From an uncultured Erysipelotrichaceae bacterium (GTDB lineage Bacteria > Bacillota_I > Bacilli_A > Erysipelotrichales > Erysipelotrichaceae): a DNA stretch of 64,000 bases. The position numbers and the translations under genes are program-made. Below, in pieces: positions 5,565 to 16,367 of the stretch (the stretch's first letter is position 1; each line of letters begins with the position of its first letter). The stretch lies in NCBI GenBank assembly GCA_947167125.1, contig CAMVGT010000006.1, positions 14,191 to 78,190 of the forward strand, in the 5' to 3' direction. Under the pieces are notes generated by a model that saw nothing but the letters and a program-made list of their open reading frames with translations, did no database searches and was not told the DNA's origin.

Positions 5565-5623
5565 AACTTTGATTTTTTTACGCTATTCTTTGTATCGTTC
5601 ACTTTATGTATGGAGATGAAACT

Positions 5624-7705
5624 ATGAAGAATCTTGTCATTGTAGAGTCGCCGTCCAAATCCAAAACGATCGCGAAATACCTCGGAACCGGCTATACCGT
5701 CGTTTCCAGCAAGGGCCATATCCGCGATCTTGCAATCAAGGGAAAGGACGGACTCGGAGTAGATACCGAAAATGATTTCGAACCGACTTATGTCGTTTCA
5801 AAAGATAAAACCGATACGGTAAAAGAACTCAGAAGCCAGGCTGCCAAAGCAGAGCATGTCTTTCTGGCAACCGACCCGGACCGTGAAGGGGAAGCGATCA
5901 GCTGGCATCTTGCCCAGGAACTCGGACTTGATGAAAATGCCAATGACCGCGTCACATTCCATGAAATCACCAAGAACGCGGTAACCGAAGCATTTGCCAA
6001 TCCCCGTGCCATCGATATGGATCTGGTCCATTCTCAGGAAACCAGACGCATTCTCGACCGCATGATCGGCTTCAAGCTTTCCAAGCTGCTCAATTCCAAA
6101 ATCCGCTCCAAATCCGCCGGCCGTGTTCAGTCGGTCGCACTGAAGCTGATTGTGGAAAGAGAAAAGGAAATCCGCGCATTTATCCCGCAGGAATACTGGA
6201 CAGTGGAAGCGGCTTTCACCAAAGACCGCAAGAAGTTCACTGCTTCTCTGACAAAGATCAACGGTGAAAAAGCGGAACTGCATACCGGTGAAGAGGCACA
6301 GAAGGTTCTTGACGCATGTCAGGACGCTTTCCGTGTTGCGGAAATCAAGACTGCGACCCGCAGGCGAGAGGCAAGACCTCCCTTCATCACCAGTACACTG
6401 CAGCAGGAAGCTTCGACAAAGCTTTCCTTCAGCGCCAAGCGCACAATGTCAATTGCCCAGCGTCTTTACGAAGGCATTGATGTCGGAAACGGCCAGGAAG
6501 GTCTGATCACCTATATGCGTACCGACTCCACCCGTCTTTCCGATGTGTTCATCCGCGACGCGCGCGATCTGATCACAGAAGAATACGGAAAGCAGTATCT
6601 CGGCCGTTATACCGTAAAGAATGACGCAAGCTCCCAGGACGCCCATGAAGCAATCCGTCCGACCAGTCTTGCCAATACACCGGAAAGGCTCAAGCCGTAT
6701 CTTTCCAGCGAGCAGTACAGGCTGTATAAAATGATTTACCAGAGAGCTCTGGCATCATTGATGGCAGCCGCGAAATATGATTCTCTGACTGTGATTCTTG
6801 AACAGTCCGGCTATGAATTCACAGCCCAGGGCAGCACGATGACATTCGACGGCTATCTGCGTGTCTACGGCGATTATGAAACCGGCAAGGATGTTCTTCT
6901 GCCGGCAATGAGCGAAGGCGAAATGATGAATGCGGATGAAGTAAAGAGCACCCAGCACTTCACCGAACCGCCTGCACGCTATACCGAAGCCAGACTGATC
7001 AAGGCGCTTGAAGAGGACGGCATCGGCAGACCGAGCACCTATGCGATGATCATCGATACCATCCAGGCCCGCGGCTATGTGAATCTTGAAAAGACAAGCG
7101 AGAAGAGCAGAACCAGAGTGTTCATCCCGACTGAGCAGGGTGAACTGACAGTTGAAAAGCTGGATGAATTCTTCTCCGATATCATCAATGTCCGCTATAC
7201 AGCGGAAATGGAAGACAAGCTCGATCAGATCGCGGAAGGCGAACTGAATGAGATCGAAACCCTGCGCAGCTTCTGGCAGCGCTTCATTCCGCTGGTCGAT
7301 AAAGCATATGCGGATATGGAAAAACTGCAGCCGGAAAAGGTCGGCGAGATCTGTCCGGAATGCGGAAGCGAACTTGTATACCGCAACGGCAGATACGGAA
7401 AATTCATCTCCTGTTCCAACTTCCCGTCATGCCGCTATACAAGAAAGATTGAAGTCAAGGAGAAGGAACAGCCTGAGCCGACCGGAAAGATGTGTCCGGA
7501 ATGCGGAAAGGAACTCCTGAAGAGAAAGAGCCGCTTCGGTACATACTTCCTCGGTTGTTCCGGATTCCCGAAATGCCATTACATGGAAAACCTGAACGGT
7601 GAGAAAATTGTCTCCCGCAAAGATAAGGCAAAAGCCGCAAAGGACGAGGATACTTCTGAAAAGAAGCCTGCCGCAAAGAGAACGCGCAGAAAGAAGGCCG
7701 CATGA
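5624..7705 (+). CDS. topA: DNA topoisomerase I with two C-terminal zinc ribbons
   Basis: [42 protein letters not shown] and two CPECG repeats. Start taken at MKNLV. Confidence 0.97.
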
Positions 7706-8997
7706 AAAGGGCGGTCGTAGTCGGCGCCGGCTTAGCCGGGTGCGAAGCGGCATGGCAGCTTGCAAAGCGCGGAATTCAGGCCGAACTGATCGAAATGAAA
7801 CCGCTGAAGCGGTCGCCGGCTCATCACGCCGATACATTTGCGGAACTGGTATGTTCCAATTCCCTGCGCTCCGACGCGCTGACAAATGCCGTCGGACTGC
7901 TCAAGCAGGAAATGCGGGAAATCGGTTCCCTGATTATGGAATGCGCAGACGTGTGCAAAGTTCCTGCCGGCAGTGCCCTGGCGGTTGACCGCACACAGTT
8001 TTCGGAAATGGTGACGGAAAAGATCCGTTCCAATCCGCTCATTGAAGTGACCGCAAAGGAAGTGACGGAAATTCCGGAAGGACCGTGCGTCATTGCCAGC
8101 GGACCGCTGACATCCGACGCATTGGCAGAAGCGATGATGGAACTGATGGACCATGATTCCTGCTATTTCTATGATGCCGCGGCACCGATTGTGACCTATG
8201 AGTCCATCGATATGTCCAAGGCATACCGCAAATCCCGCTATGACAAGGGAAGTGCGGATTATATCAACTGTCCGATGACATTTGAAGAATTTGAAGCTTT
8301 CTATCAGGCGCTCATCACAGCTGAAACGGCAGAGCTTCATTCCTTTGAAAAAGAAGTTTATTTCGAAGGCTGCATGCCTTTTGAGGTCATGGCAAAAAGA
8401 GGCCGCGACACGCTGCTGTTCGGACCGATGAAACCGGTCGGACTGGAAATTGACGGACAGCGTCCATATGCCGTCGTACAGCTGAGACAGGACAATCAGG
8501 AAGGGACACTGTACAACATTGTCGGTTTCCAGACCCATCTCAAATGGGGTGAGCAGAAGCGGATTCTGCAGATGATTCCGGGACTGGAAAACTGTGAGAT
8601 CGTCCGCTATGGCGTCATGCACAGAAACACCTATATCAATTCCCCGAAATGGCTGAAGGAAACCTATCAGTTCCGTGACCGGGACGATCTGTTTTTCGCA
8701 GGTCAGATGACCGGAGTGGAAGGCTATATCGAATCGAGCGCTTCCGGCATGCTGGCGGGGATCAACCTTGCCCATGTGCTGAACAATGAAGAGCCCGTCA
8801 TGCCTTCTTCAAAAACCATGATCGGTGCGATGTCGCATTATATCAGCACCGGGGATCCCGAACATTTCCAGCCGATGAATGCCAATTTCGGCATTATGTA
8901 TCTCGAGGGAAAAGTGAAAAAGAAAGACCGCAAGGCAGCCTACGCCCCGCAGTCGCTGAGTCTGATCCGGGAGATGATTCAGGATGGCAGACTTTGA
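7702..8997 (+). CDS. trmFO: tRNA (uracil-5) methyltransferase TrmFO (Gid)
   Basis: [38 protein letters not shown]. Confidence 0.96.
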
Positions 8998-9910
8998 AAA
9001 ATCCCTGGAACGCTTTCTGGCGCTGCTGGCGCTGGAGAGGACAGGATCCAAAGATACAGACGATGCCTACCGCAGGGATATCCTGCGGTTTCTGAATTTC
9101 CTGGAAGAAAAGGGAATTGATGATTATGAAAAGGCGGACAGGGAAACGGTCAGTGAATACATCACTTTGCTGAGAAGCGGTGAGTTTTCCGGAAAGCCGC
9201 TGAGCGACGCGAGTTTCAGCCGCTCGCTTTCGGCTCTGAAATCCTTCTGGCGCTATCTCAATATCCATGAAGGCGTCGCAAACAATCCGGTGGCGATGTT
9301 CAAAGGCGGAAAAAACAGACGGCATCTGCCGGATTATCTCACATTCGATCAGATGGAGCAGCTTCTTGAAAGTTTTGATCTCAATACGCCGGCCGGCATC
9401 CGCGACCGCTGCATCCTTGAAACCATGTATGCATGCGGGCTGCGTGTGTCCGAATGCGCAGGTCTCAAAAAGATGGATGTGCGGATCAAAGACGGCTGGC
9501 TCAGTGTCATCGGAAAAGAAAACAAGGAGCGCATGGTTCCTTTCTATCCAAGGTGCGGCGAACTGATCGATCTTTATCTGCGCAATGCCAGACCGCAGTT
9601 TATGAAAGACGTTCCCGAACACGGCATTCTGTTTGTTTCGCAGAAAGGAAAGCCGATCACATCCAGATCGATCCAGATGATCTGTGAAAAAGCTTCTGAA
9701 AATGCCGGTCTCAGCATGCATGTCCATCCCCATATGATCCGCCATTCCTTCGCGACCCATCTGCTTGACAATGGGGCGGATCTCAGAATTGTGCAGGAAC
9801 TGCTCGGACATGAGAATCTTTCGACAACCCAGATTTATACGCATGTGACGCAGGACAGGCTGCAGAAAGTGGTGGATGAAGCCCATCCCCATTCCCGCAG
9901 CGCGAAGTAA
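8984..9910 (+). CDS. xerC: Chromosomal tyrosine recombinase XerC/CodV
   Basis: [47 protein letters not shown]; conserved topA-trmFO-xerC order. Confidence 0.88.
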
Positions 9911-9917
9911 TTAGCTC

Positions 9918-9945
9918 TTGCAATCGCATGCCCATATGCTAGAAT
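9918..9945 (+). promoter_or_regulatory. Sigma-A promoter for the pyr leader
   Basis: TTGCAA 9918-9923, 16-nt spacer, TGc-TAGAAT 9937-9945. Confidence 0.7.
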
Positions 9946-10018
9946 ACTTCAGAACAGGAAAAGGACACTTTCATCGATATGGATATGTGCCTTTTTTTGG
10001 AAAGAGAAGGAGGCAGGC

Positions 10019-10114
10019 ATGAACCCAATTGCAGTCAGGTTCGATACACCGTATTCCGCAGTCGGCAATTCCGTATTTCATCCTGCGATTCTTTCCTGTT
10101 CATTCATCTTATGA
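10019..10114 (+). CDS. Putative 31-aa leader peptide MNPIAVRFDTPYSAVGNSVFHPAILSCSFIL upstream of pyrC
   Basis: AAGGAGG at 10007-10013, 5 nt before ATG 10019; TGA at 10112-10114. Too short for the ORF track. Confidence 0.6.
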   Translation: MNPIAVRFDTPYSAVGNSVFHPAILSCSFIL

Positions 10115-10120
10115 TTTTAT

Positions 10121-10152
10121 GACAGCAGTCTTTGGGACCGCTGTCTTTTTTT
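10121..10152 (+). terminator. Attenuator-like terminator directly upstream of pyrC
   Basis: GACAGCAGTC-tttgg-GACCGCTGTC followed by T7; 20 nt before the pyrC ATG. Confidence 0.85.
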
Positions 10153-10172
10153 GAACAGAAACGGAGGCGAAC

Positions 10173-11450
10173 ATGAAACGGAAGATTGTAAACTGTTCAG
10201 TTGTACAGGGTGACAGAACCGTAAACAAAGAGATTCTGTTTGATGAAAGCGGAATCCTTCAGGTAAAGGAACAGATCGATGAAGAATGCGAAATCATCGA
10301 TGCGGAAGGCGGTATTGTTCTGCCCGGTCTGATTGATGTCCATGTCCATCTGCGCGAACCCGGCTTTGAAGCCAAGGAAACAATTGCGACCGGTTCGAAA
10401 GCGGCTGCCCATGGCGGCTTCACAACAATTTTCGCAATGCCCAATCTCAATCCGTATCCCGACTGCGTGCAGACGGCTGAAGCATATCTTGCAAAGATCA
10501 GAAGCGATGCCTGCGTCAATGTCATCCCTTACGGAACCATTACCAAAGGGGAAAAGGGACAGGAAATTTCCGACATGGAGGATTTGGTGAAACTCGGCAT
10601 GCGGTATTTCTCCGATGACGGCGTCGGCGTGGCAGATGACGCGGTTATGAAAAAGGCGCAGGAAGAAGTCAGACGCCTGGATGGACTGATGGCATGCCAT
10701 ACGGAAGATATGAATTACCGCAGACCCGGGGCAAGCGTGCATGAATCGCCGCTGGCATATGAAAAAGGCTGGCTCGGCATTCCTTCCGAATGCGAAAGCG
10801 AGCAGCTGAAGCGCGATCTGAAGCTTGCGGAAGAAACCGGTGTCCGCTATCATGGCTGCCATATTTCAGCCGCTCTTTCCGTGGATGCCTTAAGACAGGC
10901 AAAAGAAAACGGCGCTGATGTTTCAGCGGAAGTTACCGCCCATCATCTGCTTCTGGAAGAAGGGGATGTCAAAGGACCGAACTGGAAAATGAATCCGCCG
11001 CTGCGTTCCCATGAAGACAGAATGGCATTGATTGAAGCACTGGAAGACGGAACACTGGATTTCATCGCTTCCGACCATGCCCCGCATACATACAGCGATA
11101 AAGACAAGCCGATGGCATCGGCCGCGTTCGGCATCGTTTCACTGGAAACCAGCTTCGTGCTGCTCTATACCGAATTTGTGGCAAGGCAGAAAAGATGGAC
11201 GCTGGAACAGTTATGTTCATGGATGAGCACAAAGCCGGCAGAGCGCTTCGGACTTTCGAAGAAGGGCAGAATTGAAGAAGGATATGACAGCGACCTTGTC
11301 ATCATTCATACCGGCATTGAAACAGCGGTCCATAAAGAAGAATTCTTCTCCAAAGGAAAGAACACACCGTTTGACGGATGGACAGTGAACTGCGAAATTG
11401 CCGAAACGATCTGCGGCGGGAAAACCGTCTACAGAAAAGAAAGCAGGTGA
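10173..11450 (+). CDS. pyrC: Dihydroorotase
   Basis: PGLIDVHVHLREPG, WKMNPPLR, IASDHAPH. Confidence 0.95.
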   Translation: MKRKIVNCSVVQGDRTVNKEILFDESGILQVKEQIDEECEIIDAEGGIVLPGLIDVHVHLREPGFEAKETIATGSKAAAHGGFTTIFAMPNLNPYPDCVQTAEAYLAKIRSDACVNVIPYGTITKGEKGQEISDMEDLVKLGMRYFSDDGVGVADDAVMKKAQEEVRRLDGLMACHTEDMNYRRPGASVHESPLAYEKGWLGIPSECESEQLKRDLKLAEETGVRYHGCHISAALSVDALRQAKENGADVSAEVTAHHLLLEEGDVKGPNWKMNPPLRSHEDRMALIEALEDGTLDFIASDHAPHTYSDKDKPMASAAFGIVSLETSFVLLYTEFVARQKRWTLEQLCSWMSTKPAERFGLSKKGRIEEGYDSDLVIIHTGIETAVHKEEFFSKGKNTPFDGWTVNCEIAETICGGKTVYRKESR

Positions 11451-11457
11451 ATGTGCA

Positions 11458-12189
11458 ATGAGAATTGAAGATGCAGTTGTAATCGAAAACAGCAGAATCG
11501 CTTCCGATACATTCCGGATGGTTCTGAAAACAGGAATCGCGGATGAAGCAGAATGCGGACAGTTTGTCCAGGTTCAGGTTCCCGGATATTATCTGAGAAG
11601 ACCGATCTCCATCTGCATGGCAGATCAGGGCACACTGACTCTGGTCTATAAAACAGTCGGAGACGGCACAGCGGCAATGAGCCGGATGAAAGCCGGAGAA
11701 ACTGTCAATCTCTTCGGACCTCTGGGCACGGGATTCCCGGTGGAAGACAGAGATGTGCTTCTGATCGGAGGCGGCGTGGGCACTCCGCCGCTGCTGTTTA
11801 CAGCGAAGAAATATCTGGAAAAAGGACATCAGGTGACTGCGGTCCTGGGTTACAATGACCGTGCGTCCGTTATGCTGGAAGAAGAATTCCGGAATCTTGG
11901 CTGTGAAGTGTATACGGCGACAATGGACGGCTCCTATGGTACAAAGGGAACCGTCATGAACGCGATCGAAGAAAACGGAATCAAGGAACAGTTTGTGCTT
12001 TCCTGCGGTCCGCTGCCGATGTTAAAGGCGGTTTCAGCAGCTTATACAGAAGGCTGTGTATCACTGGAAAGCAGAATGGCATGCGGCATGGGTGCCTGCA
12101 TGGGATGTGTTGTCAGGGATCAGGAAGGGGAATCCATGCGTGTATGCAAGGACGGACCTGTATTCCCGATCGGAAAGGCGGTGCTTTAA
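11458..12189 (+). CDS. pyrK: Dihydroorotate dehydrogenase electron transfer subunit
   Basis: LRRPISI, GPLGTGF, GGGVG, MACGMGACMGC...CKDGPVF (2Fe-2S). Confidence 0.95.
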   Translation: MRIEDAVVIENSRIASDTFRMVLKTGIADEAECGQFVQVQVPGYYLRRPISICMADQGTLTLVYKTVGDGTAAMSRMKAGETVNLFGPLGTGFPVEDRDVLLIGGGVGTPPLLFTAKKYLEKGHQVTAVLGYNDRASVMLEEEFRNLGCEVYTATMDGSYGTKGTVMNAIEENGIKEQFVLSCGPLPMLKAVSAAYTEGCVSLESRMACGMGACMGCVVRDQEGESMRVCKDGPVFPIGKAVL

Positions 12190-13791
<1,602 letters not shown>

Positions 13792-13805
<14 letters not shown>

Positions 13806-14454
13806 GAAGCAGTTTACAGAATTCATGCTGTCATGCAATGCGCTGAAATTCGGTGATTTCACTCTCAAGTCCGGCAGAAAGAGCCCGTTCTTCATGAATG
13901 CCGGCGCTTATGTCGAAGGCGGACAGCTCCACGATATCGCATGCTATTACGCAAAGGCGATCAATGACAACTTCGGTCTGGATTTCGATGTTCTCTTCGG
14001 ACCGGCCTATAAGGGAATTCCGCTGGCAGTTGCCACATGCATGGCAATCCATGAACTCTACGGCAAAGAAATCCGCTACTGCTCCAACCGCAAGGAAGTC
14101 AAGGACCATGGCGATACCGGCATCCTGCTTGGCACAAAGCTGAAGGATGGCGACAGAGTCATCATGATCGAAGATGTCACAACCAGCGGCAAATCCATGG
14201 AAGAAACCGTACCGATTGTCAAAGCGCAGGCGGATGTTGAAATCAAAGGTCTGATTGTTTCCCTCAACCGCAATGAAAAGGGCAAAGGAAACAAAACAGC
14301 ACTGGCGGAAATCTCCGATCTTTACGGATTTAAAACCGCAGCGATCGTTTCCATGCCGGAAGTTGTCGAGATCCTGAAGGAAAAGGGAGCTCTGGACGAT
14401 GAGCTTCTTGCAAGAATCGACGCTTACTACAAAGAATACGGCGCAACTGAATAA
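13792..14454 (+). CDS. pyrE: Orotate phosphoribosyltransferase
   Basis: FTLKSGRKSPFF, FGPAYKGIP, NRKEVKDHG, IEDVTTSG. Confidence 0.96.
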
Positions 14455-14463
14455 AGCATCCTG

Positions 14464-14490
14464 AGACCGGGCAACCGGTCTTTTTCTTTT
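14464..14490 (+). terminator. pyr operon terminator
   Basis: AGACCGG-gcaa-CCGGTCT followed by T-run. Confidence 0.85.
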
Positions 14491-14511
14491 GCGAAGTTTA
14501 AGATCGAACAA

Positions 14512-14597: not shown

Positions 14598-15143
14598 ATG
14601 ACAAGCGAACTCAATATTGAATTATATGAAAAGCTCAGAAGACTCAGCCGCAGATTCAGACACATGCACCATGCAGGAGATCATATGCCCGAATGTCCTC
14701 CTGAACACAGAGGTCACGGCCCGATGGACAGAATGATGACGCCGGAAGGAAGAATGCCAGAGGCGGGTCCGTTCAGGCCGCATCCTCACAGAAAACCCCG
14801 CTTCCACAGGGAAAGAATCCTTGCCGTTCTCAATGAAAGAGAGGACGGTCTTCACCAGAAGGATCTCGCGCAGATTCTCATGATCAATCCGTCTTCGCTT
14901 TCCGAAGCCATCGACAAGCTTGAAGCTGACAGGTATCTCGAGCGTACGGTTGATCCAGAAGACAGAAGGGCGACAATCATCCGCCTGACTGAAAAGGGAA
15001 AAGCGCGCGCCTATGAAGTGGAAGACGAAAGAAACGCTGCCATTGAAGAATTCTTCAAAGATCTGAATAAAGAAGAAAAAGTGCAGCTGCTGTCCCTGGT
15101 GGACAGACTTCTCAAAGACGACCCGCTGTCAAAACAGCTTTAG
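14598..15143 (+). CDS. MarR family regulator with His/Met/Pro-rich insertion
   Basis: wHTH QKDLAQILMINPSSLSEAIDKLEADRYLER..DPEDRRATIIRLTEKG; SD AAAGGAG. Confidence 0.88.
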   Translation: MTSELNIELYEKLRRLSRRFRHMHHAGDHMPECPPEHRGHGPMDRMMTPEGRMPEAGPFRPHPHRKPRFHRERILAVLNEREDGLHQKDLAQILMINPSSLSEAIDKLEADRYLERTVDPEDRRATIIRLTEKGKARAYEVEDERNAAIEEFFKDLNKEEKVQLLSLVDRLLKDDPLSKQL

Positions 15144-15250: not shown

Positions 15251-15304
15251 TATCCACGGCATCTCTTTTTATGTGCGTTTTTATCGTGCAGGATGCCTGA
15301 TTAC

Positions 15305-15396
15305 TCACACAGTGGATTCATTGCCCCGTGCACGTGGTTCTAATCGGTGCCTCAGCGTACTGATGCGCGTGTTGGCATGTTCGAAGCTGTGGTGGA
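15305..15396 (+). ncRNA. rpsB 5' leader (S2 autoregulatory, t44-like structure)
   Basis: CACACAGTGGATTC ... GAAGCTGTGGTG long-range stem in the rpsB 5'UTR, resembling known S2 leaders. Confidence 0.55.
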
Positions 15397-15422
15397 AAAC
15401 AACGGAAAGTGAGGTTAAAAAA

Positions 15423-16367
15423 ATGGCTGTTGTTTCAATGAGAAAAATGCTCGAAAACGGAGTACATTTCGGTCACCAGACACGCAAATGGAATCCGCAG
15501 ATGAGACCCTACATCTACACCGCTAAGAACGGTGTCTACATCATCGATCTGGAAAAGACAAGAGAACAGCTCGAGGTCGCTTATGCTGAACTCAAGAAGA
15601 TCACTGAGAACGGCGGAAAGGTTCTGTTCGTCGGAACTAAGAAGCAGGCTCAGGCTACAATCCTGGAAGAAGCACTGCGTTCCGGAAGCTTCTATGTCAA
15701 CCAGAGATGGCTCGGCGGCACAATGACAAACTTCCGTACAATTCAGAAGTCCATCAAGAAGCTGCTTGAGATTGAAGAGATGGAAGCCAACGGCACAATC
15801 AATGTCTACACAAAGAAGGAACAGGCAAACATGCTGAAGAAGAAGGACAGACTGGAAAACTTCCTCGGCGGAATCAAGGAAATGAAGAAGCTGCCTGACG
15901 CTGTATTTGTTGTTGACCCGCTGGAAGAGCACAACGCAGTTGCTGAAGCTAAGAAGCTCGGCATCCCTGTATTCGCTCTGATCGACACAAACGCAGATCC
16001 GAACTCTGTAGACTACCCGATTCCTTCCAACGATGACGCTGTACGTTCTGTCAAGCTGATGGTCAGCCTGATCGCAGACGCAATCGTTGAAGCAAAGGGC
16101 GGCGTTCTTGAGAATGCTTATCAGGAAGACGCAGAGATGGATGATATCACAATGGAAGATGTCATCATCAATGTTGAACAGCAGGCTGCTGAATACGAGC
16201 GCAAGAGAAGACAGAAGTATGAAGAGCGCCGTCAGCAGATGCAGCAGAGACGCTACAACGGCGAACGCCGTGTCTTCCGCAGAGACAACAACAACGCACG
16301 TCCGGCAAAGGCAGACGAAGCTGCAAAGACAGAAGCTCCTGCTGAAACAAAGAAAGTTGAGGAATAA
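15423..16367 (+). CDS. rpsB: 30S ribosomal protein S2 with long C-terminal extension
   Basis: GVHFGHQTRKWNP, GVYIIDL, RWLGGTMTNF, IPSNDDAVRS. True start 15423 after GAGG; the ORF track over-extends it. Confidence 0.98.
   Translation: MAVVSMRKMLENGVHFGHQTRKWNPQMRPYIYTAKNGVYIIDLEKTREQLEVAYAELKKITENGGKVLFVGTKKQAQATILEEALRSGSFYVNQRWLGGTMTNFRTIQKSIKKLLEIEEMEANGTINVYTKKEQANMLKKKDRLENFLGGIKEMKKLPDAVFVVDPLEEHNAVAEAKKLGIPVFALIDTNADPNSVDYPIPSNDDAVRSVKLMVSLIADAIVEAKGGVLENAYQEDAEMDDITMEDVIINVEQQAAEYERKRRQKYEERRQQMQQRRYNGERRVFRRDNNNARPAKADEAAKTEAPAETKKVEE

Follow-up and report, generated by a model that had tools for sequence, protein, structure and literature searches.

A candidate ribosome-dependent attenuator in the pyrC leader of a PyrR-less Erysipelotrichaceae bacterium

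The window analysed in this work, a stretch of 64,000 nucleotides (nt), covers positions 14191-78190 of contig C6 in the genome assembly (2.87 Mb, 94% complete) of an uncultured rumen Erysipelotrichaceae bacterium. It carries the pyrimidine biosynthesis operon pyrC-pyrK-pyrD-pyrF-pyrE, and our subject is the 220-nt leader that precedes pyrC. We put a probability of about 0.55 on the reading that this leader is a ribosome-dependent transcription attenuator, which would sense the speed of RNA polymerase and, in this way, the supply of uridine and cytidine triphosphate (UTP and CTP). An earlier note on the window had recognized here the layout of a leader-peptide attenuator of the enteric type. 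This idea is supported by the conservation of the layout in related genomes, by the absence of the regulator PyrR, and by the recurrence of the same layout before two other pyrimidine operons, pyrBI and carB.

In the following sections, we describe the leader, its relatives and the missing regulators, and then weigh the proposed mechanism against its alternatives. Unless another contig is named, coordinates refer to the window and the features lie on its forward strand.

Structure of the pyrC leader

The operon has a promoter at 9918-9945, which consists of a -35 box TTGCAA (9918-9923), a spacer of 16 nt and an extended -10 box TGcTAGAAT (9937-9945), and which scores 9/12 in a promoter scan; from this promoter, transcription is predicted to start near position 9952. 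Further downstream, a purine tract (10000-10024) contains the Shine-Dalgarno (SD) sequence AAGGAGG (10007-10013) and, 5 nt behind it, the start codon that begins an upstream open reading frame (uORF, 10019-10114) of 31 codons plus a TGA stop (10112-10114), which encodes the peptide MNPIAVRFDTPYSAVGNSVFHPAILSCSFIL. The 3' part of the uORF runs into a U-rich pyrimidine tract (10085-10120), defined by composition, which we propose as a zone where RNA polymerase would be slowed in a manner sensitive to UTP and CTP. The tract contains 53% U over its whole length, and 57% U and 77% pyrimidine over 10091-10120. For comparison, among the 1498 terminators predicted in the genome, the 30 nt on the 5' side of the stem contain 26 +/- 9% U on average, and 0.1% of them reach 57%.

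The TGA ends 6 nt before the stem of T2, an intrinsic terminator (10121-10152) that would act as the attenuator; it consists of a stem-loop (10121-10145) and a U7 run (10146-10152), with a folding energy of -13.7 kcal/mol (z -3.4). The pyrC ATG follows 20 nt after this run, and the promoter scan found no promoter-like site between T2 and pyrC. The earlier note had listed the promoter, the SD sequence with its uORF, the U/C-rich 3' part, the strong terminator next to the stop codon, and a pyrC gene without a promoter of its own. Every one of these elements lies where the note had placed it, and each is conserved; what the note missed are two structures described below, namely a hairpin (T1) upstream of the uORF and a helix that sequesters the ribosome-binding site (RBS) of the uORF.

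No Rfam family matched the window at the gathering thresholds. A curated cis-regulatory RNA or riboswitch core was likewise not found among Rfam matches, and the region enclosed by the RBS helix has no conserved sequence. A permissive Rfam scan of 9850-10250 gave only chance-level matches; the best were to ylbH (E 0.018; opposite strand) and to GcvB (E 0.06), each a terminator look-alike. A blastn search of the genome for further copies of the pyrC leader found none.

Conservation of the pyrC leader

Scans of genomes and metagenomes yielded ten further spacers of the type xerC-leader-pyrC, giving 11 pyrC leaders from about eight lineages in all; the metagenome scan contributed only near-identical copies of leaders already collected. 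The PyrC-bearing relatives are rumen Erysipelotrichaceae, comprising strain NK3D112 and metagenome-assembled genomes (MAGs) named RUG, Solobacterium and Bulleidia, and they retain the order xerC-leader-pyrC.

The promoter, in the form TTGCAx-N16/17-TGnTAGAAT, is kept in all ten orthologous spacers (10/10). In 11/11 orthologous leaders, an RBS precedes an open reading frame (ORF) 30-47 codons long, which stops at the terminator, within it or beyond it. All of them keep the purine-rich RBS, an ATG, U/C-rich sequence towards the 3' end of the ORF, and a terminator of the form GACAGC...GCUGUC-U7, located 13-24 nt before pyrC. The base of T2 (GACAGC/GCUGUC) is conserved, and the upper stem is variable. 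Counted from first base to first base, the stop codon precedes the stem by 9 to 1 nt in five lineages; in two lineages the stop is in the terminator loop beside the 3' arm, and in one the ORF continues through the terminator and overlaps the pyrC ATG.

The encoded peptides behave differently from this frame: they cannot be aligned between lineages, and the differences between the members of the close pairs L038/L039 and L047/L048 are mostly non-synonymous. Insertions and deletions within the ORF (in leaders L042, L046 and L056) are of 6, 9 and 9 nt, and those of 1 and 3 nt between close pairs are located outside it. No conserved peptide motif, and no codon run that points to a specific amino acid, was found in the leaders. 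In 8 lineages, and also in leaders that have lost T1, the ORF has remained open and ends at the terminator in spite of heavy sequence turnover. Thus, the uORF, SD sequence and terminator described in the earlier note are kept in about eight Erysipelotrichaceae lineages, with the peptide free to change.

The same layout before pyrBI and carB

The B. subtilis-type pyrB of the clade has been replaced by a pyrBI-type enzyme encoded elsewhere, and in this genome the pyrBI operon, which encodes a class-B aspartate transcarbamoylase and its PyrI chain, is located on the minus strand of contig C1. Its leader (about 143410-143620) consists of a promoter TTGACA-17-TATATA, an RBS AGGAGA, a 20-codon uORF MKLFKAAHIRMIYPDRIFIL, a terminator, and then the RBS of pyrB; the uORF stop lies 4 nt before the hairpin AGGUUUCC...GGAAACCU6. 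In the pyrBI leaders of three relatives, the uORF ATG is located 8-9 nt past the -10 box, so the mRNA may be leaderless.

The third leader precedes a stand-alone carB gene without an adjacent carA (contig C112:4340-4603, continuing into C6:3-2609). It contains a promoter, the RBS AGGAGAG, and a 25-codon uORF MKVVKRSIEYVSPSENNAGFSMFII; a terminator with a U8 tail follows, and the uORF stop falls within its loop. In this genome, about 80 nt of additional leader separate the terminator from carB.

The pyrBI and carB leaders are each conserved in seven further genomes (8 genomes each, with this one), and in all of these the ORF extends to the terminator and stops at it, in it or beyond it. The cultured strain Erysipelotrichaceae bacterium NK3D112 has all three leaders, before pyrC, pyrBI and carB.

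To describe the reading frames quantitatively, we consider the 27 leaders together. The designated frame reaches the terminator in 27/27 leaders, and the other two frames do so in 2/27 and 3/27; when an SD-like 4-mer upstream is also required, the latter counts fall to 0 and 1. In shuffled sequence, the frame would stay open with a probability of 0.12-0.39 per leader. The stop is found at the earliest at -9 nt relative to the stem, and at the latest within the hairpin or past it. The U content before the stem, which averages 47% in the pyrC family and 45% in the pyrBI family, falls within the top 0.1-10% of the terminators of the genome.

The genome has about 115 leader-type terminators, and few of these have a stand-alone, RBS-led uORF that ends at the terminator; the pyrimidine operons are among those few. 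A uORF leader is also seen before the gene of an ATP-binding cassette (ABC) substrate-binding lipoprotein on the minus strand of contig C2 (reverse-complement ~40072), whose assignment to the BMP family (nucleoside-binding type) was judged by eye from the protein sequence. This leader contains GAAGGAGG, a 32-codon uORF MKELFKSRTSDLIQPFHECDFYAAAESACFIE, and a terminator 4 nt past the stop codon (that is, the stop begins 7 nt before the stem). Judging from this arrangement, it may be another case of such control.

A protein-binding motif shared by the three leader families was sought and rejected, in that the families share no motif beyond an RBS and a start codon. The sequence YCGAAU, at +21 to +28, is common only to the pyrBI and carB leaders, which are paralogues.

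Absence of PyrR and Rho

In the Bacillota, PyrR is the textbook regulator of pyrimidine synthesis, and attenuation by a leader peptide and polymerase speed is the textbook mechanism of the Enterobacteria. The earlier note had found neither a PyrR-binding motif in the leader nor a pyrR gene in the window, and both findings can be extended. The genome contains seven genes with a phosphoribosyltransferase domain, which are hpt, prs, apt, pyrE, xpt, upp and comF; since all seven are otherwise assigned, the genome has no pyrR. The PyrR model NF003549 found no PyrR in this genome, in eight relatives whose PyrC is at least 59% identical, or in nine further leader-carrying genomes including the isolate NK3D112, that is, in 0/18 genomes of the clade. 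The same model was positive in 12 of the 41 genomes screened, all of them outside the clade, as well as in the B. subtilis and L. lactis controls, and PyrR-positive relatives exist even within the same GTDB genus. Because PyrR is absent from all 18 clade genomes, the absence is a trait of the clade rather than a gap in one assembly. The model of the PyrR-binding RNA (loop ARUCCNGNGAGGYU), RF00515, also had no match in the whole genome; note that its sensitivity in this order is too low for such a result to be telling, since it scores poorly in PyrR-positive relatives too.

A search for rho with TIGR00767 in the 94% complete assembly gave only cross-matches to ATP-synthase subunits. Rho-dependent attenuation at the pyrimidine-rich leader was ruled out as a candidate mechanism, since no rho gene was found.

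The earlier note had cautioned that terminators in the window sit very close to stop codons. This observation holds for the whole genome: of 703 predicted gene-end terminators, 45% start at most 11 nt past the stop codon and 12% overlap the coding end. Together with the missing Rho, such crowding suggests that ribosomes normally trail RNA polymerase, as they likewise do in B. subtilis, in which case termination would be the default state. The caveat is therefore consistent with an attenuator in which a ribosome has to catch up with the polymerase. Runaway transcription in Bacilli has been discussed (PMC13323073).

Pairing of the uORF ribosome-binding site

The purine tract that holds the SD sequence and AUG of the uORF (10000-10024) can pair with a pyrimidine-rich segment within the uORF (10074-10101), which forms the 3' strand of the helix (anti-SD and anti-AUG) with a duplex energy of -19 to -22 kcal/mol. 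The best partner of the RBS is located at +50 to +85 nt from the AUG in 10/11 pyrC leaders, and the non-purine parts of the helix co-vary (GGCAGGCAUG:CAUCCUGC, GGCCGGC:GCCGG and GAUGCCG:CGGUAUC). A MAFFT alignment of six full leaders followed by RNAalifold recovered only T2, as the variable spacer aligns too poorly; for this reason, duplex and partner-swap tests were used instead. When partners were exchanged among nine leaders, a set that includes some near-duplicate sequences, the own partner gave -18.5 kcal/mol versus -14.5 kcal/mol for the others (permutation p 0.0004). The approximately 50 nt enclosed by the helix contain no conserved sequence or substructure.

Sequestration of the RBS was also considered as a general feature of all leaders, and this fails for the pyrBI and carB leaders. 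The helix is an addition of the pyrC family that lies outside the common core of the system.

The T1 hairpin and the pyrB leaders of sister species

T1 (9955-9999) is a 5'-proximal hairpin between the predicted transcription start and the uORF RBS, with a purine-rich 5' strand, a U7 tail (9992-9998), and a folding energy of -16.1 kcal/mol (z -3.8). By its form, it looks like an intrinsic terminator or a pause site. Equivalent hairpins with unrelated stem sequences fold in 10/10 related leaders, and T1 is wanting altogether in three pyrC-leader lineages. A pattern scan of the genome for T1-like hairpins within 150 nt of gene starts found none. Pairing of the T1 5' arm with the pyrimidine tract was tried as a further structure and rejected; it reaches -16.9 kcal/mol in the window, is weak in relatives and always less stable than the pairing of the RBS with the tract, and it is not conserved.

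In sister species that also lack PyrR, a hairpin homologous to T1 is the sole leader element before a pyrB-pyrC-carAB operon. These pyrB leaders (L012, L015, L016, L043, L044 and L049) consist of a promoter, RAAAAAGGR, a variable stem-loop, CCU7-8 and an RBS; no uORF and no Rfam match was found in them. By their sequence, such uORF-less leaders are a candidate for an undescribed pyr attenuator. The uORF RBS and ATG have the same spacing from T1 as the pyrB RBS and ATG have from the T1-like hairpin of the sister species, and T1 looks like an ancestral attenuator of the clade.

Proposed mechanism

We propose that the pyrC leader works as follows. Transcripts would start at the conserved promoter, and those that pass T1 would carry the strong RBS and the 31-codon leader ORF. 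By default, RNA polymerase would outrun the first ribosome, and the RBS would also be shut by pairing with the pyrimidine tract once the tract has been made; T2 would then fold, and transcription would halt 20 nt before pyrC. When UTP or CTP is scarce, the polymerase would be slowed across the tract (57% U) and the U7 run, which would leave a longer time for loading on the still-open RBS and allow a ribosome to catch up. Once positioned at the stop codon or close to it, this ribosome would cover the 5' arm of T2, so that no hairpin would form and transcription would read through into pyrC-pyrK-pyrD-pyrF-pyrE. The pyrimidine tract of pyrC would serve both as the slow zone and as the strand that closes the RBS, and the speed of the polymerase would set the window for ribosome loading. 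The same logic, with different or paralogous leader sequences, would operate before pyrBI and carB, and the three operons would make up a PyrR-independent pyrimidine regulon.

In terms of predicted elements, the common core is an RBS-led ORF of arbitrary sequence whose end is within ribosome reach of an intrinsic terminator, with an unusually U-rich stretch ahead of it. On our reading, ribosomes would translate the uORF and block T2, and in the pyrC leader the RBS helix would serve as a timer. The signal would be the supply of pyrimidine nucleoside triphosphates (NTPs), as suggested by the composition of the tract, the function of the regulated genes and the analogy with enteric pyrBI. The required geometry can be compared with that in E. 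coli, where termination fell from ~90% to <10% when the stop codon was placed 5 bp instead of 28 bp ahead of a terminator, and where a ribosome had no effect on a terminator beyond about 27 nt (PMC4824070). All 27 leaders have their stop within this ribosome-blocking range taken from E. coli.

Several points weigh against this mechanism. T1 is not explained by it, and a plain U-tract terminator should terminate more, not less, at low UTP. The pyrB operon of the sister species is preceded by a T1-like element without a uORF, and therefore the clade could have an additional factor. RBS sequestration was found to be significant in the pyrC family only, not in the pyrBI or carB leaders, and one pyrC leader (L051) has no good RBS helix. 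The carB leaders are less U-rich before the stem (33%). In addition, the carB leaders can be aligned with those of pyrBI (group 1) (z 4.8), and the two are thus paralogues of one cassette, so that the three families do not represent three independent inventions; nonetheless, one pathway has retained the layout on three of its operons. More generally, translation-coupled attenuation is rare in the Bacillota, where the polymerase outruns ribosomes. A comparative study also reported that leader-peptide attenuators are rare in the Firmicutes (PMC2965389).

Alternative explanations

We consider three other explanations, in order of decreasing probability. The first, which we judge unlikely, retains a ribosome-dependent attenuator and replaces its signal by translation capacity or growth state, acting through ribosome availability, initiation rate or effects of guanosine tetraphosphate (ppGpp) on the polymerase. 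Such a signal would tie pyrimidine synthesis to the demand for RNA. The anatomy it predicts is identical to that described above, the lack of a codon run or peptide motif naming a specific amino acid suits it equally, and the many terminators that adjoin stop codons would make coupling weak by default. However, this explanation gives no role to the extreme and conserved U content before the terminator, and among the genome's leader terminators, the layout is restricted to those of pyrimidine operons. It is the U content in particular that argues against it.

According to the second explanation, a trans-acting RNA-binding protein or a small ligand would substitute for PyrR by stabilizing or opening T1 and the RBS helix, and the uORF would be incidental or auxiliary. 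The co-variation of the RBS helix is in its favour, as are the uORF-less, T1-like hairpin that stands alone before pyrB in the PyrR-less sister species, and the YCGAAU sequence, which the pyrBI and carB leaders retain also when their reading frames differ. A binding site, however, is hard to place: in the approximately 50 nt that the helix encloses, neither sequence nor substructure is conserved, no motif beyond the RBS and start codon extends across the three families, and Rfam gives no match. This explanation also fails to account for the RBS-led ORF that ends at the terminator in 27/27 leaders. Since the conserved ORF-terminator geometry speaks against it, we regard a PyrR substitute of this kind as quite improbable.

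The third explanation, that the uORF and T2 are largely a neutral leftover, perhaps of pyrB loss, or a constitutive damper and that any real control would take place at T1 or the promoter, can draw on the replacement of B. subtilis-type pyrB by the pyrBI-type enzyme and on the shared distance of the uORF and the sister-species pyrB start signals from the T1-type hairpin, but we give it very little weight because of the same conserved geometry: the ORF stays open to the terminator in 8 lineages, even in leaders that have lost T1, the layout recurs before pyrBI and carB, and tblastn of PyrB and CarA against all leaders gave chance matches only, without any remnant of PyrB.

The polymerase-speed attenuator thus remains our preferred reading of the pyrC leader. 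A more far-reaching proposal, which we offer only tentatively and consider rather doubtful, is that a Bacillota lineage without Rho and PyrR has built its whole pyrimidine regulon on such "catch-up" attenuators, that a single pyrC tract combines a speed bump with an anti-SD kinetic timer and dispenses with any protein or ligand sensor, and that T1 represents a second kind of attenuator of pyrimidine operons.

Genes around the leader

The genes upstream of the leader are topA (5606-7705), trmFO (7702-8997) and xerC (8984-9910), followed by a spacer of 262 nt and pyrC (10173-11450). The xerC-like gene encodes a tyrosine recombinase (NCBIfam TIGR02224/TIGR02225, E 1e-94). The feature assigned to pyrC (10163-11450) includes its RBS GGAGG (10163-10167) and the ATG at 10173, and the product is a dihydroorotase (NCBIfam NF006837, E 2e-145). 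The rest of the operon (11458-14454), identified by NCBIfam matches with start codons taken from the sequence, comprises pyrK (about 11458-12189), pyrD (12190-13098), pyrF (13095-13805) and pyrE (13792-14454). At the end of the operon, a terminator scan placed a terminator (14463-14492) in which an 8-bp stem leads into a T-run; the genes that come next are a MarR gene and rpsB.

Three proteins near these operons have unusual lengths or domain boundaries. The MarR-family regulator (14598-15143), just 3' of the pyr operon, is matched by MarR models only from about residue 72 on, indicating an unusual N-terminal or inserted segment of ~70 amino acids (aa). The open frame of rpsB (15273-16367) is 364 aa long with the S2 domain at residues 53-275; its GTG start has probably been called too far upstream, and a partial match to a "sunset domain" S2 variant implies a C-terminal extension. 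Apart from the stand-alone carB, the genome has a carB in an arginine cluster (argB-argD-argF-carA-carB; contig C1:144856-148899, minus strand), whose open frame of 1348 aa exceeds the usual CarB size by ~280 aa; the same 1348-aa form is found in NK3D112 and another relative.

Comparison with known systems

A close parallel is the pyrBI leader (pyrL) of E. coli and Salmonella, in which a promoter is likewise followed by a leader ORF with its RBS, by U-rich sequence and, ~20 nt ahead of the first pyr gene, by an intrinsic terminator; moreover, the pyrBI operon of this genome, with its class-B enzyme, has such a leader itself. The pyrC leader differs from the enteric one in its RBS-sequestering helix and its upstream T1, and in belonging to the phylum Bacillota. 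The enteric leader ORF runs through the attenuator, whereas here the stop is 6 nt before the hairpin, and in relatives it is at the foot, in the loop or beyond. In E. coli pyrL, polymerase runs ahead and terminates when UTP is abundant; when UTP is limiting, it pauses on a template of 49% U, and the ribosome coupled to it keeps the terminator hairpin from forming (PMC10135430). Because the leader peptides are unconserved even within the clade, we treat the pyrC leader as an analogue of enteric pyrL, not as a member of its family. The E. coli rph-pyrE system follows a similar logic, with an ORF ending within ribosome reach of an intrinsic terminator and a U-rich stretch ahead, but its upstream frame is a real gene, rph, whereas the pyrC leader has a 31-codon ORF dedicated to this role, whose peptide is not conserved.

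PyrR attenuation in Bacillus subtilis and most Bacillota controls the same pathway, also at an intrinsic terminator in the 5' leader. It differs in requiring PyrR, for which neither a gene (in the genome or clade) nor a binding RNA was found here. In the Thermus pyr operon, leader-ORF translation across the terminator reportedly gives read-through, with PyrR binding gating the leader RBS (Van de Casteele et al. 1997); in our case, there is no PyrR and the RBS pairs with the pyrimidine tract. Leader ORFs that control an intrinsic terminator are known in the Bacillota from bmrB-bmrCD and vmlR of B. subtilis (PMC4191407, PMC9226507). These leaders reportedly sense ribosomes stalled by antibiotics and rearrange RNA structure, and they involve neither a biosynthetic pathway nor a U tract. 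No description of a pyr attenuator system of the present type in the Bacillota was found in the searchable literature.

Significance

The clade has lost PyrR and, on three operons, appears to have arrived at the enteric solution by convergence. In this organism, the placement of the terminators suggests that transcription and translation are weakly coupled. If the proposed mechanism is correct, the "catch-up" of a ribosome with the polymerase can be a regulated event in bacteria with runaway transcription, and the leader would be a compact module that needs no protein to respond to NTP supply. In that case, genome annotation would also have a means of recognizing pyr regulation in the absence of PyrR.

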